Below the pieces are notes generated by a model. The model was not told where the DNA came from, did no database searches, and was given only the letters and a program-made list of their open reading frames with translations. This document shows, piece by piece, positions 23,738 through 35,293 of a DNA stretch of 64,000 nucleotides. Each line of letters begins with the position of its first letter. Position 1 is the stretch's first letter. Source of the DNA: Salinivirgaceae bacterium (lineage in GTDB: Bacteria; Bacteroidota; Bacteroidia; Bacteroidales; SZUA-534); contig JBFWMB010000012.1 of assembly GCA_050251815.1 (NCBI GenBank), positions 6,234-70,233 of the forward strand, in the 5' to 3' direction. The position numbers and the translations under genes were made by a program.

Positions 23738-24706
23738 TTATTCCAGATGTTCTTTAATAAAAGCCCATCCTTTTTCAGATATTTTAGCCCCTAAGTTTTC
23801 AATAACCTTTCCTGAAAGCAAGGCTCCCATTTTGCCGCATTTGCTTAGCGACAGCTTATGAACCATTCCGTATAAAAATCCGGCGGCATAAAGGTCGCCT
23901 GCTCCGGTGGTATCAAAAGCATCGATACCAATAATGCCAACCCGGGCTTCATCGGTTCCGTGTTTGATTAAAGAACCCTGTTTACCGATCTTTACTACGG
24001 CGTATTCACAAAGTGTAGCCAGTTCGTTTAGCGATTCTTCCGGATTTTTTCCGGTAAAGGCACGGGCTTCTTCCTCGTTGGCAAAAATTATATCAACATA
24101 ATCACGAACAATCCGGTGCAAAAATTCTTTGTTTTCTTCAACTACATTGTAGCTGGCCAAATCGAGCGAAACGTTCAGTCCTTTTTCTTTGGCAATTTTA
24201 ACTGCGGTTTCAATCAGTTCATGGTTTTGAACCAAATATCCTTCGATGTGGAAGTATTGATAGCCTTCGAAAATACCCGGATTGATATCGGATGCACACA
24301 ATTCAACCGCCGCTCCCAGATAAGTAGCAAAGGTGCGTTCCGAATCGGGTGAAACCAAAGCTACCGCTTTACCGGTTGGTGTTTCGCTCAACAGAAGAAA
24401 AGGTTCAATACCGGCTTCCTCCAGATCTTCTTTAAAAAACACACCCAGCGGATCGGCGCCAACTTTACCCACAAAACCGGTTTCAATGCCCAAACGGGCC
24501 AGTCCGTGTATGGTATTTGCTGCAGAACCACCTGATGTCATTACCTGATTCAGGTGGTGGGTACTTTCAATTACCAGTTTGCTGAAATTGGCATCCACCA
24601 GTTGCATGCTTCCTTTTGGCAGGTTTAATTCGGTTAATGTACTGTCGTTGTTTAACTTAGTCATCACATCGACCAGGGCGTTGCCCATTCCTAAAATCTT
24701 ATCCAT
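23738..24706 (-). CDS. PfkB-family sugar/nucleoside kinase (adenosine-kinase-like)
   Basis: 322 aa. It has the ribokinase-fold motifs GGSAANT and DTTGAGDLYAAGFLYG. Confidence 0.8.
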   Translation of the reverse strand: MDKILGMGNALVDVMTKLNNDSTLTELNLPKGSMQLVDANFSKLVIESTHHLNQVMTSGGSAANTIHGLARLGIETGFVGKVGADPLGVFFKEDLEEAGIEPFLLLSETPTGKAVALVSPDSERTFATYLGAAVELCASDINPGIFEGYQYFHIEGYLVQNHELIETAVKIAKEKGLNVSLDLASYNVVEENKEFLHRIVRDYVDIIFANEEEARAFTGKNPEESLNELATLCEYAVVKIGKQGSLIKHGTDEARVGIIGIDAFDTTGAGDLYAAGFLYGMVHKLSLSKCGKMGALLSGKVIENLGAKISEKGWAFIKEHLE

Positions 24707-24918: not shown

Positions 24919-24992
24919 TCCTCCTTAGCTCAGTTGGTTAGAGCACCTGACTGTTAATCAGGGGGTCCTTGGTTCAAGTCCAAGAGGGGGAG
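24919..24992 (+). tRNA. tRNA-Asn (anticodon GUU), 74 nt, no encoded CCA
   Basis: The cloverleaf was folded by hand. Acceptor is TCCTCCT/AGGGGGA (one G-U), D arm is GCTC-AGTTGGTTA-GAGC, anticodon arm is CCTGA-CTGTTAA-TCAGG, variable loop is GGGTC, T arm is CTTGG-TTCAAGT-CCAAG and the discriminator is G. Confidence 0.95.
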
Positions 24993-25003
24993 CTCAACAA
25001 AAT

Positions 25004-25043
25004 AAAGCCTTTGCAGATTTTTTGCAAAGGCTTTTTTATTTTA
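25004..25043 (+). terminator. Rho-independent terminator of tRNA-Asn
   Basis: AAAGCCTTTGCA-gatttt-TGCAAAGGCTTT forms a 12-bp stem, followed by TTTTATTTT. Confidence 0.85.
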
Positions 25044-25045
25044 TA

Positions 25046-25807
25046 ACTGTTAACCAGGGCCCCGAAAGCCTTCGGGGTTGGTTCAAGGGCCTACCGGAAG
25101 GGTTCGGAAAGGGAGCTCAGTAAAAACAAAGCACCTGCAAATTTATTGTGAAGGTTTTTTTATTATATGACAAGAGCAAAAGGTCAAGCCGAATGGTTGC
25201 TCTGGATATTCAACTTTTAAATGATTAATTTTGATGGGCTGTTAACCAGGGCCCCGAAAGCCTTCGGGGTTGGTTCAAGTCCCTGACGAAAGGGTTCGGA
25301 AAGGAACTCAGTAAAAACAAAGCTCCTGCAAATTTATTGTCAAGGTTTTTTATTGTATGACAAGAGCAAAAGGTTAAGCCGAATGGTTGCTCTGGTTATT
25401 CAACTTTTAAGTGATTAATTTTGTAACTGTTAATCAGGGCTCCGAAAGCTTTCGGGGTTGGTTCAAGTCCATTCCGAAAGTTTTCTGATGGGGGAGTCCA
25501 GCAAAATAATGCACTTACAAATTATTGTAGGTACCTTTTTGTTTTGTAGCCATACGAAAGGGTCAATTCGAATACCATTTCTCGAAATATTTAACTTTTT
25601 AATGATTAATTTTATAACTGTTAATCAGGGCCCCGAAAGCTTTCGGGGTTGGTTCAAGTCCATTCCGAAAGGCTTCGGAAGGGGGAGTCCAGCAAAATAA
25701 TGCGCTTGTAAATTATTATAGGTGCCTTTTTATTTTGTAGCCATACGAAAGGGTTAATTCGAATACCATTTCTCGAAATATTTAACTTTTTAATGATTAA
25801 TTTTGAA
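25046..25807 (+). repeat. Four tandem ~190-bp modules (A1 25046-25237, A2 25238-25425, B1 25426-25616, B2 25617-25807), each headed by a hairpin-expanded copy of the 3' half of tRNA-Asn
   Basis: Each unit starts (A/G)CTGTTAA(C/T)CAGG, which corresponds to tRNA positions 31-43. A 7-bp-stem hairpin follows (CCCCGAA-agcy-TTCGGGG), then TTGGTTCAAGTCC (T arm), a second similar hairpin (TTCCGAA-aggc-TTCGGAA in B2), GGGGAG (acceptor 3' strand) and a hairpin plus T-run. A1/A2 and B1/B2 are each roughly 90% identical by eye. A and B types share the head and the tail AACTTTT(T)AAxTGATTAATTTT but differ in the middle. Confidence 0.9.
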
Positions 25808-25851
25808 AGTGTTAATCAATGTCCCGAAAGCCTTTGTGCTTTTCACCAACT
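25808..25851 (+). repeat. Degenerate fifth copy (C) of the tRNA-Asn-derived head, directly upstream of the GIY-YIG ORF
   Basis: AGTGTTAATCAATGTCCCGAAAGCCTTTGTGC aligns with the unit heads (CTGTTAATCAGGGCCCCGAAAGCTTTCGGGG) and has several substitutions. Confidence 0.7.
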
Positions 25852-26151
25852 ATGGAACAAGGCTTTGTATACATATTGTTTAGTAAAAAACTATCGCGAT
25901 TTTATGTTGGTGCTACACGATTAGCCCCAACAGATAGACTATCCTGACATTTGACCAACTATTACGGGATTTTAAAATTCACTGCAAAAGCCGACGATTG
26001 GGAGCCCTTTATAAACATTGAATGTAAAAACTTTGAGCAGGCTTTAAAAATAGAAGCACACATCAAGAAGATGAAAAGTAAAAAGTACATTGAGAATCTT
26101 CAATACTATCCTGATATTATTACCAAATTGCTCGAAAAATATTCTTCGTGA
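25852..26151 (+). pseudogene. Small GIY-YIG (URI-domain) nuclease gene interrupted by an in-frame TGA at codon 32
   Basis: ATG at 25852 gives MEQGFVYILFSKKLSRFYVGATRLAPTDRLS, then TGA (25945-25947). The same frame continues HLTNYYGILKFTAKADDWEPFINIECKNFEQALKIEAHIKKMKSKKYIENL... to TGA at 26149-26151. The (F/Y)VYIL...YVG...R(L)..H......W.......E.Ex.IK pattern is that of the GIY-YIG/URI fold. The ORF track shows only the distal part (25951..26151, TTG start). Confidence 0.7.
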
Positions 26152-26154
26152 AAA

Positions 26155-26195
26155 ACTGTTAATCATTGCCCCGAAAGCTTTCGGGCTTGGTTCAA
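26155..26195 (+). repeat. Sixth copy (D) of the tRNA-Asn-derived head
   Basis: ACTGTTAATCATTGCCCCGAAAGCTTTCGGGCTTGGTTCAAGCCCA starts 4 nt after the GIY-YIG stop and ends 15 nt before the hicB stop. Confidence 0.8.
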
Positions 26196-26209
26196 GCCCA
26201 TTGTCAAAG

Positions 26210-26596
26210 CTAGATTAGAAAACTGGCCTCCGATAATTCGCGACCAATTTGTTGTACACCCTCTAAGATTCTTTTTAACTGGCTGGTCGAGGGTTTTTTA
26301 CTGCCTTTAATATATTGCGCCAACAAACTTTGATTCATACCTATACGTTCACTTAAAGCCTTTGCGTTTATTACCTTGTAAAAATCGAAAAAGCTTTCAA
26401 GGTCATAGGCAAACTGAATGTCGCTAAGGGTATATTCCTCGCTTTCAAAAGCCAAATTTACAGCCTCAACTGCATTTTTTTGAAGGGCTGTAAAACTTTC
26501 GGCCTCGGTGGCAATAAAATTATTTTCAATAGTTCCGGTAGCACTGTATCCTGTATCTTCTTTTACAACTTCTAATAGTATTTTTTTCTTTTTCAT
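26210..26596 (-). CDS. hicB: HicB-family antitoxin (HicB N-terminal fold plus C-terminal XRE-type HTH)
   Basis: 128 aa. The N-terminal part resembles a HicB-like fold (EDTGYSATG...FIATEAESF). The C-terminal HTH is LSERIGMNQSLLAQYIKGSKKPSTSQLKRI. Its start ATG overlaps the hicA stop in the sequence ATGA. Confidence 0.8.
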   Translation of the reverse strand: MKKKKILLEVVKEDTGYSATGTIENNFIATEAESFTALQKNAVEAVNLAFESEEYTLSDIQFAYDLESFFDFYKVINAKALSERIGMNQSLLAQYIKGSKKPSTSQLKRILEGVQQIGRELSEASFLI

Positions 26597-26790
26597 CGCT
26601 TGTTTGTTTTAATATCAGCTTGCTTTAATATTGCCTTTAGCAATCCTTTTTTAACCTCCTTACCTGCATGGTAGGGTACTGTTAACTGTAGATCCTTTTC
26701 GGGATGTTGCATAATAACATGACTTCCTTTTTGCCGGACTACAACCCAACCATTGTTTTTTAATAGCTTAAAAAGGTCGTTGTATTTTAT
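26593..26790 (-). CDS. hicA: HicA-family mRNA-interferase toxin gene lacking a canonical start codon (ATA at the expected Met position)
   Basis: Not in the ORF track. The minus-strand translation is (I)KYNDLFKLLKNNGWVVVRQKGSHVIMQHPEKDLQLTVPYHAGKEVKKGLLKAILKQADIKTNKR, with stop TGA at 26593-26595. The GW...RQKGSH...H....L.VP.H..KE...G motif is classic HicA. The in-frame upstream codons are TAA-TAT-ATT-TAT-TAC-CTT-TGC-ACC-ATA, so no ATG, GTG or TTG is available. Confidence 0.75.
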   Translation of the reverse strand: MKYNDLFKLLKNNGWVVVRQKGSHVIMQHPEKDLQLTVPYHAGKEVKKGLLKAILKQADIKTNKR

Positions 26791-26888
26791 GGTGCAAAGG
26801 TAATAAATATATTACTTTTTCAAACAAATGGAATTTTTGTGTGTTATTGAGTGAATAACCAAGGTATTGAAAAGGTACGCCTAATGAG

Positions 26889-26914
26889 GCTGTTAATCTG
26901 GTTCTCAAACGGGC
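26889..26914 (+). repeat. Seventh, hairpin-less copy (E) of the tRNA-Asn anticodon-loop/T-arm segment
   Basis: GCTGTTAATCTGGTTCTCAAACGGGC corresponds to CTGTTAATC joined directly to a TGGTTC..CAA T-arm-like segment. It lies 99 nt upstream of the hicA start position. Confidence 0.55.
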
Positions 26915-26922
26915 ATTAATAA

Positions 26923-27131
26923 AAACCCGATCTTTTTTAAAAAGATCGGGACTTTGTAAAAAAAGATCGGGTTCTTATAAAATAAAGTCGTGATCTTGTA
27001 AAAAAAGATCGTGACCTTGTAAAATAAAGTCCCGACTTTGTAAAAAATAAACGAGACCTTTTTGCAAAAAGATCGGGACTTGTTTGAAAAAAGATCCCGA
27101 CCTTTTCGAAGAAAGATCGGGACTTTGTTGG
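26923..27131 (+). repeat. Block of one inverted plus nine direct, degenerate 21-22-bp repeats (consensus approx AAAGATCGGGACTTTGTAAAAA); iteron-like and GATC-rich
   Basis: The G of the AGATC/AGTC/ACGAG cores falls at 26944, 26965, 26987, 27007, 27029, 27053, 27071, 27093 and 27115. An inverted copy CCCGATCTTTTT at 26926-26937 forms a palindrome with the first direct copy. A-tracts are phased at about 21 bp. I count 8 GATC sites in about 210 bp. Confidence 0.85.
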
Positions 27132-27431
27132 CCTACGAACCCGTCTTTGATTATTACAGGTAACCTATCCTTAGGCCTGAATTCTAATTGTGTAACGAAC
27201 AGGCATTACGGGTTGTATTTACCAGGCTTTAGCTACTTCTTGTAAAAATGCCTCCACGCCAAGGAACAGGAACCAATACAACCCGGAAATCAATCCAGCA
27301 CTGCTGGAGCTTATTCAAAGTAAAAATCCCAACTTTTAGGGATTGCCGCCATTTTTCTTCGCTGCTACTTTTGACCCGAAGTTTATTCAAATAATAATTC
27401 GAGGGATTTAGTTGGAGAAGAAAAAAGCATC

Positions 27432-29819
27432 ATGATACAAAAAGCCATACTCATAAGTTCATTCATCTGCTATTCAATCATCAGTTTTGGTCAGCAAGCT
27501 GTTGGTACTATTGCGGGAACAGTTAAAGACGCGAAAGGAACTGCTATTCCCTTTAGTAGCATTGCTATTCTGGGTACAAACCAGGGAACAATTTCTGACG
27601 AACAGGGGCATTTCTCACTAAACACTCCTGTTATTGGATCGCAAACCTTGGTTGTGAGTAGTTTGGGATACGAACCCCGCCATATTCCCCTTAGCCTGGG
27701 AAAAGAAAAACAGCTTAAACTCGATGTTTTGCTTGAGTCCGGTAGCATTGCTATAAACGAAGTGGTGGTTTCTGAAAAAAGCGAAACCACCCGGCGTAAA
27801 GAATTGCCTTTTTCGATAACAGCCATCGATGCCAAACCTTTACAGGCAAAAAATATGGATATAAATCAGGTGCTAAATACCACAACGGGAATCCGCATTC
27901 GTGAGGAGGGCGGACTGGGCTCCAATTTTAGTTTTTCGTTGAATGGCTTTACCGGAAATCAGGTAAAGTTTTTTTTGGATGGCGTTCCCATGGATAATTT
28001 TGGCAGTTCGCTTACTTTAAATAATATTCCGGTCAATTTAATCTCAAGCATTGAAGTTTATAAGGGTGTGGTTCCCATACATCTGGGTTCCGATGCCCTG
28101 GGCGGTGCGGTAAATGTAATTACCAATAACAAGATTAGTAACTATGTGGATGCTTCTTATGCCTACGGTTCTTTTAACACCCACCGGCTGGCTTTAATCA
28201 GTCGCTATACCCATGCTAAAACGGGTCTGGTGGTAAAAGCCAATGCCTTTTATAATTATTCCGATAACGATTATAAAATGTTTATTCCCGTATCGGATAT
28301 CTCGAATGGCGGAAAATACGGGGAACCCGAATGGATACGCAGGTTTCACGATGCTTATGAGTCGCAGACTGTCCAGCTTGAAATTGGGGTGATGGATAAA
28401 AAACTGGCCGACCGCCTCTTTTTTGGAATAATTACCTCAAAAAACTATAAGGAGCTGCAAACCGGGCACAACATGAATATTGTAATTGGGGAAGCTTTTG
28501 ATGAAGACCAGGTAATTATTCCCACCTTACACTATTCAAAAAACGATTTGTTTATTCCGGGATTATCGGTAAACCTGTACGCCAATTACAATTTCAGGCA
28601 GGCCCTGAGTGCCGATACCAGCAGCCGAAAATACGACTGGTACCAAAACTATGAGGTGAAAGGGATTAATACCACCAGTGGTGAAATAGCCTGGAACAAA
28701 ACCTTGTTTAGCTATAACGATAACTCGGCCCTGGTTTCGGCAAACCTGACTTACACCATAAACAGCAACCACAGCCTGTCGTTAAATAATACCTACAGCA
28801 GTTTTCGCCGGAAGGGTGAAGATCCCATCAGTTTATCGGTAGTGCCCTTCAGTAAACCCAATGTTTTAAATAAGAACATTACCGGCTTTTCGTACAGTAT
28901 CAGTTTGCTGGGAGGTAAATTAAAAACGGTTGTTTTTACCAAGCTGTTTGTTATGGAATCGACCGGATTCGAAGGCGACCGCTACAGTAAGTCGGACACC
29001 GCTTTAACCAAAATAAAGGCCGCTTACAACAAGTCATCATTAGGGATAGCTTCAACCTATTACCTTACCCCGGAAACCCAGCTTAAGCTGAGCTATGAGA
29101 ATACCTACCGCTTGCCCGAAGCTCGCGAAATGTTTGGAAACGGTTTGACGTTGCTGAGTAACCTGAACATTCAACCCGAGGAAAGCAAAAACTTTAATGT
29201 GGGGATATTAAGCAACCACACCTTTAACAGGCATCGGCTGATGGCAGAACTGGAATACTTGTATCGCCTGCCCGAAAATATGATTCGCTATATGGCTGAA
29301 GGAAACGACGGATTTTATGAGAACCTGGTCTCGGTTAAAGGATACAGCATCGAAGGAGGTATTAAATACAATTACAATAACAAATTAAACCTGGAGTTGA
29401 ACGGAACCTACCAAAAAATGGTGTACAACAATAAAACAACACCAACAGGCGGCGTCAATTACCTGTATGAGCAACAATTAGCCAACATTCCTTTTCTTTT
29501 TGGTTCGTTAAATATGGGTTACCAATGGGCCAATGTTTTAGGTGATGGCAATACCTTGGCGGCGAATTGGGCAACGCTGTTTGTCGAGTCGTTTTATTTA
29601 AAGTCGCCTTCTAACGGGAACCCAACCGGAAAGAACGATATCCCCCGACAAATTTCCAATTCGGCGAATGTGTCCTACAGTTTTAAAAACGGGCAATACA
29701 CCATTTCCCTGGCTTGTACCAACTTGTCCGATAAACCGCTTTACGATAACTGGAAACTGCCAAAACCAGGCCGTGCCTTTAATGTAAAGCTTCGCTATTA
29801 TATTTTTAGTAACCAATAA
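27432..29819 (+). CDS. TonB-dependent receptor (XusA-like siderophore-type)
   Basis: 795 aa. It has a signal peptide, a CarboxypepD_reg-like domain (GTVKDAKGTAIPFSSIAILGTNQGTISDEQGHFSL), a plug and a 22-strand-type barrel with a terminal aromatic region. A DUF4374-type lipoprotein gene and a PepSY gene follow. Confidence 0.9.
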   Translation: MIQKAILISSFICYSIISFGQQAVGTIAGTVKDAKGTAIPFSSIAILGTNQGTISDEQGHFSLNTPVIGSQTLVVSSLGYEPRHIPLSLGKEKQLKLDVLLESGSIAINEVVVSEKSETTRRKELPFSITAIDAKPLQAKNMDINQVLNTTTGIRIREEGGLGSNFSFSLNGFTGNQVKFFLDGVPMDNFGSSLTLNNIPVNLISSIEVYKGVVPIHLGSDALGGAVNVITNNKISNYVDASYAYGSFNTHRLALISRYTHAKTGLVVKANAFYNYSDNDYKMFIPVSDISNGGKYGEPEWIRRFHDAYESQTVQLEIGVMDKKLADRLFFGIITSKNYKELQTGHNMNIVIGEAFDEDQVIIPTLHYSKNDLFIPGLSVNLYANYNFRQALSADTSSRKYDWYQNYEVKGINTTSGEIAWNKTLFSYNDNSALVSANLTYTINSNHSLSLNNTYSSFRRKGEDPISLSVVPFSKPNVLNKNITGFSYSISLLGGKLKTVVFTKLFVMESTGFEGDRYSKSDTALTKIKAAYNKSSLGIASTYYLTPETQLKLSYENTYRLPEAREMFGNGLTLLSNLNIQPEESKNFNVGILSNHTFNRHRLMAELEYLYRLPENMIRYMAEGNDGFYENLVSVKGYSIEGGIKYNYNNKLNLELNGTYQKMVYNNKTTPTGGVNYLYEQQLANIPFLFGSLNMGYQWANVLGDGNTLAANWATLFVESFYLKSPSNGNPTGKNDIPRQISNSANVSYSFKNGQYTISLACTNLSDKPLYDNWKLPKPGRAFNVKLRYYIFSNQ

Positions 29820-29831
29820 ACAATACATACG

Positions 29832-31073
29832 ATGAAACCAATTTTGAATACAATTAAACTAACGACTGTGGCTGTAGTAATCGGTACATTTGCTTCCTGC
29901 GAAGAAAGCGAACCCACAACAGATACTACCACAGCCAACTATGTTATGTCATTACGTACTACCGGAGCCAACGACGAAAGCTCCGATTACTTGTTAACTG
30001 TTGATGATTTAATGACCGGCGAAATTTCGGCCCAGGGAACAGGCACCGAACTGGTTGGTTGGAACTATACCGGCAAATTTGGAGGAACATTTTTTTCATT
30101 CGGTTACGATTTGAACGAGTGCATCGCCTATGAGATTTCAAATAACACTTTACAGGAGAAAGGAAAGTTTGTTTTCGATCGTTTCGATGTGATGAATCCC
30201 ATCGACAACAATACCTTTATGGCAATTGGAGCGCCCTGGGGAGGTGGTTCGTACGATTGTCAACTTCAGGTGGTCGATATTAACGAGGTAGCTATTGCCA
30301 AAACCGTATTGCATCCAATTTACGTGTCTTTCGACCCCAACAATCCCGAGGTGCAACTGAATGCCTGGCCTACCCATTCTTATCTAGATGGCGACAAATT
30401 CTATGTGGCATTTTATACCCTGAATGGTGTATCGTGGGAAACACCCAATACCGACACGGCTTACGTAAGCGTGTTCTCGTATCCTGAACTGGAATACATT
30501 AAAACAATAAAAGATACCCGTACCGGACCCATAGGATATTACGGAGCCCAACCAGCTATTTTGACGGATGAGGCCGGCGATCATTATACCTTATCGTCGG
30601 GGGCTTACTCGGCCGGATTTACCCAGGTTACCAAAGGCTCAGGCATCTTAAAAATTGCATCGGGTAGCGATGAGTTCGATGCCAATTATTTTTTCGATGT
30701 GGAAGCTACCGGTTACCGGGTTACCTCGGCTACGTATGTGGGCAATGGCCTGGCTGTAGCCAATGTAATCTCCAAATTGCTCGACGAAACAGCGGCTTTG
30801 CAAAGCCAATGGGCTTTGTTTTCAGAAGTAACCCCTTTGCTAAACACGGCAATTATCGATTTATATAACAAAACCCTTACGCTTGTCGATGAAGTACCCT
30901 TGCACGGGGGACAATACCAGACTCCTTTTTTGGTGGAAGATGGTTTGGTATATATTTCGGTTAATGATGGAAGGGAAACCTATGTTTACCAGGTTGATGC
31001 CGTAAATAAAATAGCTGTTAAAGGGGCTAAGCTTATTGGTAATCAGTTTCAGGGACTTTATTCAGCAAAATAA
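29832..31073 (+). CDS. DUF4374-like surface lipoprotein (XusB-like)
   Basis: 413 aa with lipobox FASCEE. Composition looks beta-propeller-like. It sits 12 nt after the TonB-dependent receptor, which is the gene order of Bacteroides xusABC. Confidence 0.6.
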   Translation: MKPILNTIKLTTVAVVIGTFASCEESEPTTDTTTANYVMSLRTTGANDESSDYLLTVDDLMTGEISAQGTGTELVGWNYTGKFGGTFFSFGYDLNECIAYEISNNTLQEKGKFVFDRFDVMNPIDNNTFMAIGAPWGGGSYDCQLQVVDINEVAIAKTVLHPIYVSFDPNNPEVQLNAWPTHSYLDGDKFYVAFYTLNGVSWETPNTDTAYVSVFSYPELEYIKTIKDTRTGPIGYYGAQPAILTDEAGDHYTLSSGAYSAGFTQVTKGSGILKIASGSDEFDANYFFDVEATGYRVTSATYVGNGLAVANVISKLLDETAALQSQWALFSEVTPLLNTAIIDLYNKTLTLVDEVPLHGGQYQTPFLVEDGLVYISVNDGRETYVYQVDAVNKIAVKGAKLIGNQFQGLYSAK

Positions 31074-31343
31074 AACCGTCTTTTTTTTGCGTTGTGTCAG
31101 AGCGTGTAAATTATATAATGCAGGCTACTGGCATTTCGCAATTTAAATATAGCGGGGTGAAAGCTTGCTAATTAAGCTTATCCGTTACTTCATGTTTTTA
31201 ACTACATCAAAACAATAATTAGATACGATGAAACACCCATGTTCTTGCAAACACAACTATTCTCATGAGCAAAGCGAATAAACACGATAAATTAAAATAT
31301 GCAACATGGGTGTTCCATCATTCCTTGAAAATTAAATTTTATT

Positions 31344-32477
31344 ATGATGAAACAAGTAATTGTAAAAACACACCTGATTGTAGGATTTATTTCCGGCCTT
31401 GTGTTGTTTATTGTGGCCATAACCGGGGCCATGTATTCTTTCAAAACCGAAATAGAAGCGCTTACGCAATCGTACCGGAAAGTTGATTTGGAACCCAAAG
31501 CCATGATTCCTCCTTCAAAGGCCTTGGAAATTGGTCATAAAACATTACCAGATATCGAAATTCACGGGGTGATTTACCGCAAAGCGGATGATGCTCTGGA
31601 GGTAGTTTACTATCAGGAAGAACCACTTTATTATGGGGCAGCCTACCTGAATCCTTATTCGGGTGAATTGCTCAAAACCAAGGATTTTTATAAATCCTTT
31701 TTTGGTTTTGCCCTGCGTGGCCACATTGCTTTATGGCTTCCGTTGCACATTGGCCAACCCATTGTGGCTATTGCCACCCTGTTTTTTCTGCTTATGTTTG
31801 TCAGTGGCCTGATACTCTGGTGGCCTAAAAAATCGGGTTCAACAAAGAGTTTTGCTTTTACCCGGGAGGCAAAACCTTCGGTAAGGCGCCTGGAATGGCA
31901 TAAGGTAATTGGCTTTTATGTGGTTTGGCTTGCCTTAATCCTGGTGTTAACCGGAATGACCTGGGTTTTTAAAGGATTTGACAGAGCAGTGTACAAGGCA
32001 ATGGGCGGTAAATTGGAAACCCATTTTAGCATGCCTGCATCCGATACCACAAATACCATCCGTATGGATTCCGTTGCTAAACCCATTGATTTGTTGTGGG
32101 CAAATTTAAAACAACAATATCCTGAAATGCCCTTTATTGAGATTCATGCTGTTTACGATTCGGTTTCCACATTTTTAGTTGAATTAAACAGCGACCCATC
32201 GAAGTATTGGAAAACCGACTATTTGTATTTTGATCAACACACCCTTGAACCGGTGGAATCGAATACCATTTACGGAAGATTAGAACAGGCGGGCATTCCC
32301 GAAAAAATTAAACGGATGTACTACGATATGCATACCGGAGCCATCTGGGGTCTGCCCGGGAAAATTATCATGTTTTTAGCCAGCTTGTTTATCGCCAGTC
32401 TGCCGCTTACCGGTTTTCTGTTGTGGTGGTCGCGCAGGCGCGAACAAAAGAATTTTATGAAGCAATTGGATTTATAG
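31344..32477 (+). CDS. PepSY-associated transmembrane protein (XusC/PiuB-N-like)
   Basis: 377 aa. Four hydrophobic helices are arranged as in the PepSY_TM family, with an N-terminal THLIVGFISGLVLFIVAITGAMYSF helix and a C-terminal helix ending LLWWSRRREQK. Confidence 0.8.
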   Translation: MMKQVIVKTHLIVGFISGLVLFIVAITGAMYSFKTEIEALTQSYRKVDLEPKAMIPPSKALEIGHKTLPDIEIHGVIYRKADDALEVVYYQEEPLYYGAAYLNPYSGELLKTKDFYKSFFGFALRGHIALWLPLHIGQPIVAIATLFFLLMFVSGLILWWPKKSGSTKSFAFTREAKPSVRRLEWHKVIGFYVVWLALILVLTGMTWVFKGFDRAVYKAMGGKLETHFSMPASDTTNTIRMDSVAKPIDLLWANLKQQYPEMPFIEIHAVYDSVSTFLVELNSDPSKYWKTDYLYFDQHTLEPVESNTIYGRLEQAGIPEKIKRMYYDMHTGAIWGLPGKIIMFLASLFIASLPLTGFLLWWSRRREQKNFMKQLDL

Positions 32478-32493
32478 TATAACTCCGTTTAAC

Positions 32494-34086
32494 ATGTGGT
32501 GGTGGAGAAATAGAAAAAAAACAGACAAAGATGCGGTTTTGATCTTGTTTGGTACCAAAACTGGAAATGCACGGATAGTTGCCCAAAAGGCCCGGCAATA
32601 TTTTATTCAAAACGGAATAGGCGCAAATTGCCTAAATATGTCCGACTACGATCCCCGACAGCTGGGTTCGGTAAAGCGGCTCTTGGCTGTGGTTAGTACA
32701 CAGGGTGAAGGAGAGCCTCCGGTACAGGCTAAAAAGTTTTATTCTACCCTTATGGATAGCAATATTCCGGAATTAAAACACCTGAATTATTCCGTTTGTG
32801 CTTTAGGCGATAGCGGATACGAGTGGTTTTGTAAGGCAGGAAGAGATTTGGATCAACGTTTGAATCAATTGGGGGCTACTCCTTTGCTGGAACGTACAGA
32901 ATGCGATGTTGATTTTTCGGTAGCTGCAGTTCAATGGATTAAAGAAACCTGCCGCAAATTAAACCAAAACACGAATCGACAGGCAGCACCGATTGAGGCG
33001 CTCGATATTCCTGATGGAAACAAATCCTTTAAAGCAAAACTTGTGAGTCAAACGCGGGTAAATGCTGAGGAGGCTCATGATCCTGTTTTTCGGGTAAGAT
33101 TGAAGGTAGCAAATCCTGAATTTTCGTTCCAGGCGGGTGATTCAGTTTCCATTAAACCGGTAAACCATCCGGATTTGGTAAGTGAAATAATGAAAAAACT
33201 ATACGGTACCGATCAATTATCCAAATCAGAAGTTGATAGCATACAAAAGCAACTTCAGTATAAGCTGGAACTTACCAACCTGAGTAAAGGTACCCTTAAG
33301 CGCTACCAAAGAGTAGTCGAAAATAACGCACTTCATGCACTTTTAAGCGATAATGCCCAACGGCTTTCATACCTAAAAGAAGCCAATGTAAACGATTTAT
33401 TAAACGATTTTCCTGGAACAATTACCGCAAATCAACTGATGCAGGTTTTACCTGCCATAAAAGAGCGGGTCTATTCCATTGCTTCAGCCTTCGATAAAGA
33501 GTCGAGACAATTCGATTTGTTGGTTAAATCCATTCATTATGAATACAAGCAGCGGTTGCATCAGGGAGCGGCTTCGGTTTTTTTAAACGAAGGATTGCAG
33601 GTTAATGATGATCTTACTTTTTCGTTAATCGAAAATGCGCAGTTTCGCTTACCTGAAGATCCCCAAACTCCGATAATATTATTGGCTGCCGGAACCGGTC
33701 TGGCCCCTTTTAGGGCCTTTTTGCAACAACGACAACAATTGGGAATAAAAAATAATTGCTGGCTTATTTGGGGTACCCGTCATCGGGAGCACGACAGGCT
33801 TTGTATTGATGAATTAACCAATTTTAAGAAAAATGGAGTGATTCAACACTTAAACTTTGTTTTTTCGAGAGATAATCAGGGGTTTAAATATGTTCAGGAT
33901 GTTTTGTTCAGGGAACAAGCCTTGGTTTTAGACTGGCTTAACAGAGGTGCTATGTTATATGTGTGTGGATCGATGGCATTGGGTAGGGGGGTTAAAAACA
34001 ACCTGAATTTGGTTTTACAGCAAACTCCGTTTAAAGATGTTGAAAGCCTTCAGGCGACTAACCGTTATTTTACCGATTTGTATTAA
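32494..34086 (+). CDS. Sulfite-reductase-alpha (CysJ)-like flavoprotein: flavodoxin domain plus FAD/NAD(P)H ferredoxin-reductase domain
   Basis: 530 aa. The flavodoxin-like part is LILFGTKTGNA...VVSTQGEGEPP. The FAD motif is RVYSIASA and the NAD(P)H motif is LLAAGTGLAPFRAF. The C-terminus is YFTDLY, diflavin-reductase-like. Confidence 0.85.
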   Translation: MWWWRNRKKTDKDAVLILFGTKTGNARIVAQKARQYFIQNGIGANCLNMSDYDPRQLGSVKRLLAVVSTQGEGEPPVQAKKFYSTLMDSNIPELKHLNYSVCALGDSGYEWFCKAGRDLDQRLNQLGATPLLERTECDVDFSVAAVQWIKETCRKLNQNTNRQAAPIEALDIPDGNKSFKAKLVSQTRVNAEEAHDPVFRVRLKVANPEFSFQAGDSVSIKPVNHPDLVSEIMKKLYGTDQLSKSEVDSIQKQLQYKLELTNLSKGTLKRYQRVVENNALHALLSDNAQRLSYLKEANVNDLLNDFPGTITANQLMQVLPAIKERVYSIASAFDKESRQFDLLVKSIHYEYKQRLHQGAASVFLNEGLQVNDDLTFSLIENAQFRLPEDPQTPIILLAAGTGLAPFRAFLQQRQQLGIKNNCWLIWGTRHREHDRLCIDELTNFKKNGVIQHLNFVFSRDNQGFKYVQDVLFREQALVLDWLNRGAMLYVCGSMALGRGVKNNLNLVLQQTPFKDVESLQATNRYFTDLY

Positions 34087-34094
34087 TAGAGAGA

Positions 34095-34136
34095 TACAAA
34101 ACGCCACATTTAGGCTGGTAAATGTGGCGTTTTGTA
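34095..34136. terminator. Bidirectional terminator (18-bp perfect stem) between convergent genes
   Basis: TACAAAACGCCACATTTA-ggctgg-TAAATGTGGCGTTTTGTA lies between the reductase stop (34086) and the esterase stop (34142). Confidence 0.85.
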
Positions 34137-34141
34137 TGTAT

Positions 34142-35293
34142 TTATTTTTTTAACTGTTCCGATACCCGGTCAAGGTTGGCCTTGTATAAAGCCGTGTTGG
34201 GATGATTCGTCAGTTTACCCAGTGTGTAGGCTTTTTCATAACAATCGCGGGCTTTATCCCATTCCTTATTTTGCTCGTAAGCTTCACCCAAACTATCGAA
34301 TACGTTCGAAGAGCCGGGATAGCGTTTGCTGTTTTCAATAAAGGTGAGTAATGCAGTTTTTATATCACCCGCTTGAAGGTAGCGATATCCCAGCATGTTA
34401 ATTATGTTCTCGGGGGTATGAATGGGATATCCGTACTTTTTCGAAAGCTTAGCATAGTAGGCATCCAAGGTGGCCAAATCTTTTTGTTGAAATTCCTGTG
34501 GTAAGCGCCAATCGGAATAAACAAAACGCAAACCCCGGTAAAGGCTTACATAAGGAATGCTGCCGTGATTTTCGTCGGGCATTTTCAGGTAACAGTAATT
34601 TATGCTGTTTTGCTGTTTCATTAGCGAATCGAATGTGTTGTGAGCCTCATAATAATTGGGTTCGTTTCCTACGGTCATAAAGAAGTTTTTATTCCCTTGT
34701 TTTTCCGGGGTTTGCCCTGCTTTTGCCATACCCAGTAAATAGCTGTTATCGTAATGAATAACGGGACTAAAGGCCAGGTAAGCCTCAAAAAGTTCCGGCT
34801 GGGTTAAAAAGGTAAAGGTGGCAAATGTTCCTCCAAACGAGTGTCCCATCAGGATGCGGTAAGGTGCTGCCCGGAATTCTTGTTCAATACGGGGAATCAG
34901 TTCTTCCTTCAAAAACTGCTGAAATTTGTTGGCTTCGCCTGATGTAGGAATAGCCCCAGTATGCGTGGGCAAAAAATTACGGTTTCTGTCGGTGTTGGTA
35001 AGGGCTACTACTATCATGGGAGGAATCTCGCCCAGACGGTTTAGGTAATCAGTAGCGGCTACAGCATGTTGAAAATGGGTATTCCCATCGAGCAAAAAAA
35101 GAACCGGGTAACTTACCTCATTCGAGGCATATCCTTCGGGTAATTGTACCAGCATTACACGCTCCTCACTCAGTATTTTTGATTGGATGGTGAGTATTTG
35201 GCTTGATTCAACGGTGTTTTGTGCTTTGCATAACGCTGTTCCTGATAAAATTCCCAGCGCTAAAAACAGGGTGAGTAAAAGAGTTTTGTTCAT
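34142..35293 (-). CDS. Secreted alpha/beta-hydrolase of the putative-esterase (Fes/IroE-like) family with a C-terminal TPR-like region
   Basis: 383 aa with a signal peptide. It has YPVLFLLDGN and the nucleophile elbow GHSFGG. The C-terminal ~110 aa has TPR-like repeats (AGDIKTALLTFIENSKRYPGSSNVFDSLGEAYEQNKEWDKARDCYEKAY). Confidence 0.7.
   Translation of the reverse strand: MNKTLLLTLFLALGILSGTALCKAQNTVESSQILTIQSKILSEERVMLVQLPEGYASNEVSYPVLFLLDGNTHFQHAVAATDYLNRLGEIPPMIVVALTNTDRNRNFLPTHTGAIPTSGEANKFQQFLKEELIPRIEQEFRAAPYRILMGHSFGGTFATFTFLTQPELFEAYLAFSPVIHYDNSYLLGMAKAGQTPEKQGNKNFFMTVGNEPNYYEAHNTFDSLMKQQNSINYCYLKMPDENHGSIPYVSLYRGLRFVYSDWRLPQEFQQKDLATLDAYYAKLSKKYGYPIHTPENIINMLGYRYLQAGDIKTALLTFIENSKRYPGSSNVFDSLGEAYEQNKEWDKARDCYEKAYTLGKLTNHPNTALYKANLDRVSEQLKK

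Follow-up and report, generated by a model that had tools for sequence, protein, structure and literature searches.

A tRNA-anchored array in a Salinivirgaceae bacterium, probably the footprint of small GIY-YIG nuclease cassettes widespread in Bacteroidota

The 64,000-nucleotide stretch of a Salinivirgaceae contig analysed here (the window in what follows) contains, directly downstream of a gene for the asparagine transfer RNA (tRNA-Asn), a 2-kb array in which partial copies of this gene, each carrying an 18-nt palindrome in place of a few tRNA nucleotides, bound short intervals holding either no gene, a small GIY-YIG nuclease gene or a hicBA toxin-antitoxin pair. We consider it fairly probable that this array is the local footprint of a Bacteroidota-wide kind of small selfish, homing-endonuclease-like tRNA-gene cassette, built on a GIY-YIG nuclease of about 95 amino acids (aa) of the Slx1/UPF0213 type. 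The original prediction, which was made from the window alone, had already recognised in these 2 kb a cassette-like array with tRNA-derived "heads" as its boundaries, and this view stands. The GIY-YIG gene, which that prediction regarded simply as the content of one interval, is shown by comparison of homologous loci to be the hallmark of the whole system and not cargo.

The evidence which carries this reading comes from homologues of the GIY-YIG protein. In all four genomic contexts inspected for homologues with 50-60% identity, from Altibacter, Mongoliibacter and a metagenome, the gene adjoins a tRNA gene and is flanked by a partial duplicate of that tRNA, with the palindrome CCCGATAGCTATCGGG standing in for one of its loops. 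A metagenome scan with an alignment of 40 proteins then gave 79 loci totalling 188 kb. A tRNA gene lies within 500 nt of the open reading frame (ORF) in 60 of these loci, at a median distance of 58.5 nt and always on the same strand (60/60), upstream of the ORF in 49 and downstream in 11; the tRNAs concerned are those for Met (28 loci), Asn (17), Leu (8), Phe (4), Thr (2) and Arg (1), while 12 of the 19 loci lacking a tRNA gene have less than 300 nt of upstream sequence. The strict palindrome motif matches 131 times in the 188 kb, against an expectation of about 0.05, which is our own estimate from the degeneracy of the motif under the assumption of equal base frequencies; 116 of the matches are found within 400 nt of the ORF and none inside it. 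A relaxed form of the motif is present in 69 of the 79 loci, almost always inside partial duplicates of the tRNA and often in ORF-less tandem arrays, and the loci without the strict motif contain loop variants of the same hairpin. In the window, the relaxed palindrome is absent from the other 62 kb outside the array. At the level of sequence, a tRNA gene, a small GIY-YIG gene and palindrome-marked partial tRNA copies are thus seen to form a three-way association. The clusters formed by the proteins mostly track the tRNA type, without exception in the Leu clade and almost without in the Asn clade; Met, Asn and Phe occur together in three clusters, which implies that the tRNA partner has occasionally been switched. 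This cross-phylum picture was obtained by way of the protein homologues and not from the head pattern, a scan of the genome collection with the latter having matched one genome only, a Salinivirgaceae metagenome-assembled genome (MAG); the pattern is too lineage-specific.

The position of the palindrome within the tRNA copies follows a simple geometry, which can be read off against the intact neighbouring tRNA gene that is retained, still functional, beside the duplicates. The conserved palindrome of these duplicates is YCCGAWAGCTWTCGGR. Both flanks align with the intact tRNA of their own locus at 68 non-identical sites, and in 63 of these the 18-mer takes the place of 3-5 nt (5 nt in 36 cases, 4 nt in 12, 3 nt in 15). 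They are situated within or next to the loops of the cloverleaf, namely the D-loop (11-18), the anticodon loop (ATAAT of tRNA-Met, 36-40), the variable loop and the T-loop. Twenty tRNA-Asn sites fall at GGTCC of the variable loop, positions 46-50, identical to the window, and the tRNA-Asn duplicates begin, again as in the window, at position 32/33 in the anticodon loop. In the palindrome, the core CCGA/TCGG hardly varies, covariation is seen in the outer two pairs, and GAT/ATC changes to GAA/TTC as a pair. Since the proteins are only about 50% identical across lineages, the palindrome must be under sequence-specific constraint.

In the window itself, the anchor of the array is a functional tRNA-Asn gene (anticodon GTT) at 24919-24993 on the plus strand, the only genuine tRNA of the series, called by ARAGORN and matching the Rfam tRNA family RF00005 with 69 bits. 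A Bacteroidota-type promoter read by eye, TTTG-N19-TATTTTTG, precedes it, and an intrinsic terminator evident from sequence and alignment, GCCTTTGCA...TGCAAAGGC followed by a T run, lies at 25005-25042 on the same strand; alignment reveals a diverged copy of this terminator in each of the units downstream. A 41-nt head pattern (CTGTTAAYC...TTGGTTCAAG) recurs with at most three mismatches at 25047, 25239, 25427, 25618 and 26156, where no match would be expected by chance, and Tandem Repeats Finder (TRF) reports a 191-bp period over 25038-25831. Together with two further copies, at 25809 and 26890, these make up the seven tRNA-derived plus-strand repeats, separated by intervals of 192, 188, 191, 191, 347 and 734 bp, that had been counted from the window alone. 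The description of the copies as simple segments from anticodon loop to T arm needs amending. In every head, positions 46-50 of the variable loop (GGTCC, 5 nt) are swapped for the 18-nt palindrome CCCCGAAAGCTTTCGGGG, whose consensus in the window heads, CCCCGAAAGC(T/C)TTCGGGG, is a perfect 18-nt palindrome, and the units continue beyond the T arm, running from tRNA positions 32/33 to about 63 and then through a second hairpin, the acceptor 3' strand (GGGGGAG) and the diverged terminator to a spacer of about 75 nt ending in TAATTTTG.

Four such units succeed one another on the plus strand. Unit 1 (25047-25238, tRNA positions 32/33-63, palindrome at 25060-25077, with second hairpin, acceptor 3' strand, terminator and spacer) and unit 2 (25239-25426, palindrome at 25252-25269) belong to one type, A, and unit 3 (25427-25617, palindrome at 25440-25457 with one G:T pair) and unit 4 (25618-25808, palindrome at 25631-25648 and a second, perfect hairpin at 25663-25680) to another, B. 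The head is 90.8% identical between the two types, as compared with 59-66% for the remainder of the unit, and the terminator stems differ between units, for example between units 3 and 4, by compensatory changes. The box TAATTTTG (25226-25233 and elsewhere in the window) precedes most heads by 5-7 nt, both in the window and in three relatives (L002, L003 and L091); before unit 4 it reads TAATTTTA, and the units of other lineages lack it. It fits TAnnTTTG, which we take to be the -7 promoter element of Bacteroidota. A derivation of the 75-nt spacer from a remnant of the GIY-YIG ORF, by comparison with the mini-units of locus L054 discussed below, found no support in this lineage, the local alignment score being 19 against a shuffled mean of 18.

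The three remaining heads, all on the plus strand, are less regular. Head 5 (25809-25851) is degenerate, with the anticodon loop and the 5' palindrome arm (GTGTTAATCAATGTCCCGAAAGCC, divergent thereafter) fused to a terminator-like remnant, and as a whole it serves as the leader of the GIY-YIG gene; the same structure is found in L003 and in L004, a 946-bp contig from a sister sample. Head 6 (26156-26204) covers tRNA positions 33-64, with its palindrome at 26169-26186, and is cut off by the 3' end of hicB. Head 7 (26890-26904) is a deletion remnant consisting of CTGTTAATC and TGGTTC, and its 9-mer by itself is weak, matching six times in the window against 0.62 expected and once at an unrelated site (22437). 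It can be taken as a genuine decayed copy because the relative L091 carries a complete head and unit at the homologous position just past hicA, and it is by this comparison only that the 26890 copy is validated. The interval between heads 6 and 7 contains, on the minus strand, hicB (26210-26596) and hicA (26593-26784), a toxin-antitoxin pair carried as cargo between heads. HicA matches the HicA_toxin family PF07927 with an E-value of 1.5e-24, and the HTH_3 match of HicB is exactly at the 23-bit cut-off (E 8.4e-5); the toxin domain, with an adjacent HicB bearing a helix-turn-helix (HTH), places the pair among HicAB systems.

The units could be regarded as independently transcribed, tRNA-derived small RNAs, decoys or regulators of use to the host, to which the GIY-YIG gene would be an accessory. 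Each unit in this lineage has its own terminator, the stem of which is maintained by compensatory changes, with the TAATTTTG box 5-7 nt before the head; the heads are far better conserved than the rest of the unit, and RNA folding of unit 4 gives z = -4.8 for the sense strand against -2.7 for the antisense. The folding predictions favour structure in the sense transcript of unit 4; for unit 1 they do not, since with z = -0.4 it folds no better than shuffled sequence. Likewise, an Rfam scan of the region at E<=1 returned the true tRNA and matched no family to the units, and the units of other lineages are devoid of promoter-like boxes of their own. The imperfect palindromes have no excess of sense-strand G:U pairs (G:T 22 against A:C 42); these wobble counts give no sign of selection on a sense RNA, and a DNA palindrome is equally compatible with them. 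Moreover, the number of units varies freely between relatives, and the whole array is missing from five Marinilabiliales assemblies (L097-L101). An array of useful RNAs is possible for this lineage; it does not generalise to the others, and as an account of the system we regard it as unlikely.

The gene that accompanies the heads across lineages is represented in the window by a plus-strand ORF of 99 codons (25852-26151), Slx1/UPF0213-like and matching Pfam PF01541 with an E-value of 5.8e-11. An alignment of 40 homologues has Y29, R40 and E79 invariant and Y18, G31 and H44 nearly so, and the domain with its conserved Tyr...Tyr-x-Gly, Arg and Glu is of the catalytic type of the GIY-YIG superfamily. 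In a PDB profile search the nearest structures are the UPF0213 proteins 1zg2 and 1ywl, followed by Slx1, and an AlphaFold (AF2) model with a mean predicted local distance difference test (pLDDT) score of 80.6 is matched by Foldseek to UPF0213 (1zg2, 1ywl), Slx1, HIGLE and the catalytic domain of I-TevI. The family proteins, of 93-100 aa, consist of this catalytic domain and two or three short basic helices; neither the alignment nor the model contains a separate DNA-binding domain of the I-TevI/Seg architecture. The family comprises about 1,027 clusters at 50% identity (E<=1e-10), and its named members are all from Bacteroidota. Searches of NCBIfam, PADLOC and PHROGs gave no informative family, with no matches for the intact copy P0001 and sub-cutoff matches only for P0018.

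The GIY-YIG gene and hicA each have a fresh-looking lesion in the window. The GIY-YIG ORF is interrupted by an in-frame TGA at 25945-25947, which reads AGA in the L004 contig, the source of the intact, 99%-identical copy P0001, and the start codon of hicA (26782-26784) is ATA in the window and ATG in L091. These differences could be due either to pseudogenisation or to consensus errors. The array in the window is probably decaying, since the nuclease gene has a nonsense codon and hicA lacks an ATG. Such decay would also be expected of an inert satellite, produced when the 3' region of the tRNA happened to be duplicated in tandem, and drifting neutrally with neither function nor machinery, a notion with which the 191-bp tandem periodicity and the degenerate second halves of the units agree. 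It cannot explain, however, why the same palindrome, the same tRNA positions and the same gene family recur in dozens of unrelated Bacteroidota, nor why heads remain 90.8% conserved against about 60% elsewhere in the unit, and we consider it very improbable.

The anatomy of the cassettes at other loci gives an idea of how such an array may be composed. At L063, two tRNA-Asn genes are followed by a terminator (A), a GIY-YIG gene, a marked copy (33-75), terminator A again, a second full GIY-YIG gene, another marked copy and a second terminator (B). At L054, the tandem units are ORF-less and only 115 nt long, each consisting of a marked copy, a terminator and the last 14 nt or so of the ORF; tandem full cassettes and 115-nt ORF-less mini-units are distributed over L063, L054 and L015, and arrays of 5'-half units stand upstream of tRNA-Phe or tRNA-Met at L018, L039 and L017. 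The four 191-bp units of the window are the local equivalent of such arrays; they have the breakpoint at 32/33 and the palindrome site at 46-50 in common with the other Asn-type loci. At two loci the GIY-YIG ORF ends at the TAA of the duplicated anticodon loop (L063 at about 553-561, AAC TGT TAA, in tRNA-Asn; L022 at about 1776-1786, TCA TAA, in tRNA-Met), which puts the cassette junction exactly in the anticodon loop. L020 (1049-1134) and L054 (1117-1204) contain full-length tRNA-Asn copies with the 18-nt palindrome in the variable loop, and ARAGORN calls these copies tRNAs of 86-88 nt, as though with a long variable arm. At L012 (1-1400), marked pieces of tRNA-Met with two palindromes are followed by 1.2 kb with two ORFs, one lipoprotein-like (152 aa) and one of 81 aa, before the GIY-YIG cassette is reached, an arrangement suggesting that the capture of cargo is not unique to hicBA.

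Comparison of the same locus in relatives makes the variability of the array directly visible. The five Marinilabiliales assemblies, in which the adjacent adenosine kinase is 76% identical to that of the window, have the same tRNA-Asn and a similar terminator, with no heads, palindromes or GIY-YIG gene, and so present an empty site. In L091, L092 and L094, with kinases 98% identical, head 6 and hicBA come directly after the tRNA terminator, followed by one full unit and a degenerate head; units 1-4 and the GIY-YIG gene are absent. L003, with approximately 86-92% nucleotide identity, contains a unit, head 5, the GIY-YIG gene and a shortened head without hicBA, and L002, a Salinivirgaceae MAG with 84-89% nucleotide identity, has three type-B units and then unrelated sequence. 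As the original prediction had proposed to look for, individual intervals are thus present or absent between relatives (the window compared with L091, L003 and L002), with breakpoints at the heads, and a more distant relative has an empty tRNA-Asn site; in the manner of Seg-like elements, occupied alleles (window, L003), one without the gene (L091) and empty ones (L097-L101) occur beside a conserved tRNA. An apparent second head in L097 (position 9778) was dismissed as a chance match within a DinB-type gene. In short-read Logan assemblies, of this organism as of its relatives, contigs end within the tRNA or the array, as seen from the contig ends of L001, L093 and L096 and from L004, and metagenome assemblies probably collapse such arrays or contain too few of them.

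This mosaic variation invites comparison with integrons, as had been suggested initially, whereby a recombinase encoded elsewhere would use the head, or the folded palindrome hairpin, to insert and excise single-gene cassettes, be they GIY-YIG, hicBA or ORF-less. The individual presence and absence of intervals with head breakpoints, the different rank of hicBA in the arrays of L091 and the window, the head-bounded 1.2-kb interval with unrelated small ORFs at L012 and the conservation of the palindrome, resembling that of a protein-binding site, would all be in keeping with such capture. But neither an IntI nor another recombinase, nor any candidate enzyme, is found nearby, the perfect 18-mer palindrome has none of the features of attC, the sole gene always accompanying the heads is that of the GIY-YIG protein itself, and homologous recombination between 45-nt heads suffices for the insertions and deletions. 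The analogy with integrons and with clusters of attC sites lacking integron-integrases (CALINs) is not supported, the absence of both IntI and the attC architecture speaking against it, and we judge capture of this type to be quite unlikely.

The other explanation initially offered, that of an eroded graveyard of islands, takes the heads for attL/attR scars of tyrosine-integrase elements serially integrated at the anticodon loop of tRNA-Asn. With many tRNA-targeting integrases the direct repeats begin at the anticodon loop, as they do here at 32/33, and the downstream region is variable between relatives, including the presence of a 7-kb operon and an esterase gene. The absence of integrase, transposase and relaxase genes noted between 23.7 and 27.4 kb is confirmed and extends, by Pfam, to every ORF checked across the 64 kb; likewise none was found between the heads in any relative examined, none of the relatives contains an integrase-bearing element between two palindrome-free heads, and their gene tables yield a single recombinase match, an IS110 fragment that lies 0.9 kb from the tRNA of the empty-site locus L099. 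In addition, each repeat includes a precise, conserved 18-nt palindrome unlike anything in att scars, the repeats run beyond the tRNA into the terminator, four of the intervals are near-identical 191-bp units, and the design recurs phylum-wide, in 60-69 of the 79 loci, beside a small nuclease gene and not an integrase. A graveyard of islands is on these grounds highly improbable.

The mechanism that we favour for the GIY-YIG cassettes is modelled on intronless homing. The nuclease would cut both strands of the DNA within or close to a tRNA gene copy, and repair would then copy in the cassette, the tRNA pieces on both sides serving as homology arms. The cassette would supply a replacement segment of the tRNA together with a terminator, such that the host tRNA stays in working order, and the palindrome would stop the displaced copy from acting as a tRNA, from being cleaved, or both, and may also be the structure that the nuclease itself recognises. 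Unequal recombination between heads could subsequently amplify the units, delete the ORF, so generating the 191-bp units, and trap genes such as hicBA.

Several considerations weigh against this reading. The nuclease step is one that we infer, and to our knowledge neither a cleavage activity nor a target has been assigned to this protein family. A protein of 95 aa appears to have no obvious domain for recognising a long target, the adjoining intact tRNA shows no visible protection, a difficulty for a simple homing model, and the reading offers no mechanism for writing the same palindrome at 12 or more different positions in tRNAs. The gain and loss of intervals can be accounted for without a nuclease, by ordinary homologous recombination between repeats. 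The array in the lineage of the window predates a species split, and L091 and L002 carry units with no GIY-YIG gene nearby, which means that units persist without the enzyme in cis. There are no relatives of the family among the viral contigs of IMG/VR, and cases of the same cassette in unrelated flanks, which might have served as proof of transposition, are few and ambiguous (L012/L014, L028/L056) and were set aside. A more novel variant takes the marked tRNA pieces for specificity modules, the hairpin being a handle for the nuclease, the tRNA flanks pairing with the cognate tRNA gene (as DNA or as transcript) and the replaced 3-5 nt marking the cut loop. Such nucleic-acid-guided homing seems to us doubtful; were it true, an exchange of the tRNA flanks would re-programme the target, and the use of six tRNA types by a single family of 95-aa proteins would be explained.

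The closest precedent for homing by the GIY-YIG cassettes is, by analogy, SegB of phages T4 and T6. SegB is a free-standing homing endonuclease gene of the GIY-YIG type located among the tRNA genes of T-even phages (PMC2330249, PMC13096335); the enzyme cuts inside tRNA genes at RAWTSGAAC in the T-loop and drives a recombination-dependent, reversible tandem amplification of tRNA and segB (PMC13096335). Palindrome-marked partial tRNA copies are not mentioned in either paper (PMC2330249, PMC13096335). Common to both systems is a nuclease gene embedded among tRNA genes, and amplification and collapse match the arrays and the copy-number variation observed here, whereas SegB is a phage protein with an added DNA-binding region and the present nuclease is a chromosomal, minimal 95-aa domain of the Slx1/UPF0213 branch. 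Free-standing homing ORFs of fungal mitochondria, such as that of Allomyces atp6, supply the invaded gene with a new 3' end, the former one remaining as a fragment. In that case too the mobile ORF carries a copy of the target terminus, the gene stays functional and the displaced terminus is found downstream as a pseudo-copy; however, the targets are protein-coding, no conserved palindrome is known from the displaced copy, and the host and the nuclease clade are different.

Other mobile systems agree with the array in part. Integrative elements targeting tRNA genes have repeats starting from the anticodon loop, an element-borne 3' part that restores the tRNA gene and a variable region downstream, but here there is no integrase, the units measure 0.19-0.7 kb, the repeats reach into the terminator and a palindrome interrupts each one; among the ORFs of the 64 kb scanned with Pfam there is no integrase next to an att repeat, and the repeats are not uninterrupted copies of the tRNA 3' part. 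Integron arrays and CALINs likewise consist of single-gene and ORF-less units in the same orientation, with toxin-antitoxin cassettes and a hairpin-forming boundary, but the present array is tRNA-anchored with tRNA-derived boundaries, IntI is lacking, and the R''-L''/L'-R' structure of attC was not seen on reading the sequence, no attC covariance model having been run. The repetitive extragenic palindromes with their associated tyrosine transposases (REP/RAYT) and the palindromic elements of Rickettsia are similar in that a short conserved palindrome is tied to one nuclease-type gene, or in that palindromes occur within RNA-gene sequence; in the present case a GIY-YIG enzyme stands in place of an HUH/Y1 transposase, the palindromes occur only in the tRNA copies next to the gene and are not dispersed, being absent from the other 62 kb, and no RAYT-like gene is found in the window. 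Finally, the Slx1/UPF0213 (YhbQ-like) proteins provide the best profile and fold matches (1zg2, 1ywl, Slx1, HIGLE), and Slx1 enzymes cut branched and stem-loop DNA, which fits with a conserved hairpin as partner, although Slx1 works in repair, has a RING domain and acts with a partner protein. We know of no link between bacterial UPF0213 proteins and tRNA genes or palindromes. A phylogenomic study of the GIY-YIG superfamily from 2006 noted stand-alone bacterial Slx1-like proteins, with no link to tRNA genes. A description of the module was not found in the full-text literature, of incomplete coverage, even with the palindrome sequence as a query, and the module, widespread in Bacteroidota, is apparently undescribed.

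The tRNA-Asn gene sits between the array and a pfkB-type adenosine kinase gene on the minus strand (23738-24706), and the 23 kb on the left (235-23665) form a polysaccharide utilisation locus, unrelated to the array, with SusC/SusD-like proteins, glycoside hydrolases of families GH5, GH26, GH27 and GH3, CE2, SASA esterases and Por-secretion tails. Directly after the last head there is a tandem repeat of 21-22 bp in about nine copies (26939-27128, consensus AAAAAGATCGGGACTTTGTAA), which is partly shared with L003 (616-737) and absent from L091; as its motif was not found in other GIY-YIG loci, it was rejected as a component of the system. The following 7-kb block (27145-34137), resembles an operon for iron uptake and contains no mobility gene; it encodes a TonB-dependent receptor, DUF4374, a PepSY_TM protein and a flavodoxin/FAD/NAD reductase. 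It is missing both from L003, where the 21-bp repeats abut the esterase gene, and from L091. This esterase gene, encoding also tetratricopeptide repeats (TPR) and adjoining Dus (34142-35293), is present in the window and L003 and apparently absent from L091 and L092, in which Dus lies some 0.7 kb from hicA, a further insertion or deletion in the same variable region.

As an architecture, the combination of a minimal Slx1-like nuclease, replacement tRNA pieces and a conserved palindromic patch is unprecedented, while being akin to the selfish genes of free-standing homing endonucleases. Whereas tRNA genes are the classic landing sites of integrase-borne islands, it points to a second and much smaller class of tenant at these genes, one that is free of integrases. 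The stereotyped replacement of 3-5 nt of a loop by one and the same palindrome implies a step of DNA writing or targeting, for which we know of no enzyme class that could account. If the proposed reading is true, a 95-aa nuclease and an 18-nt palindrome would suffice to colonise essential tRNA genes throughout a phylum without killing them, and the resulting tandem arrays, which could trap other genes such as hicBA, would be a chromosomal bacterial counterpart to the SegB-type amplification of phages. The breaks of short-read assemblies at these tRNAs would likewise be explained, and the reading would give a function to many proteins, in about 1,000 clusters at 50% identity, at present annotated as "GIY-YIG family protein".

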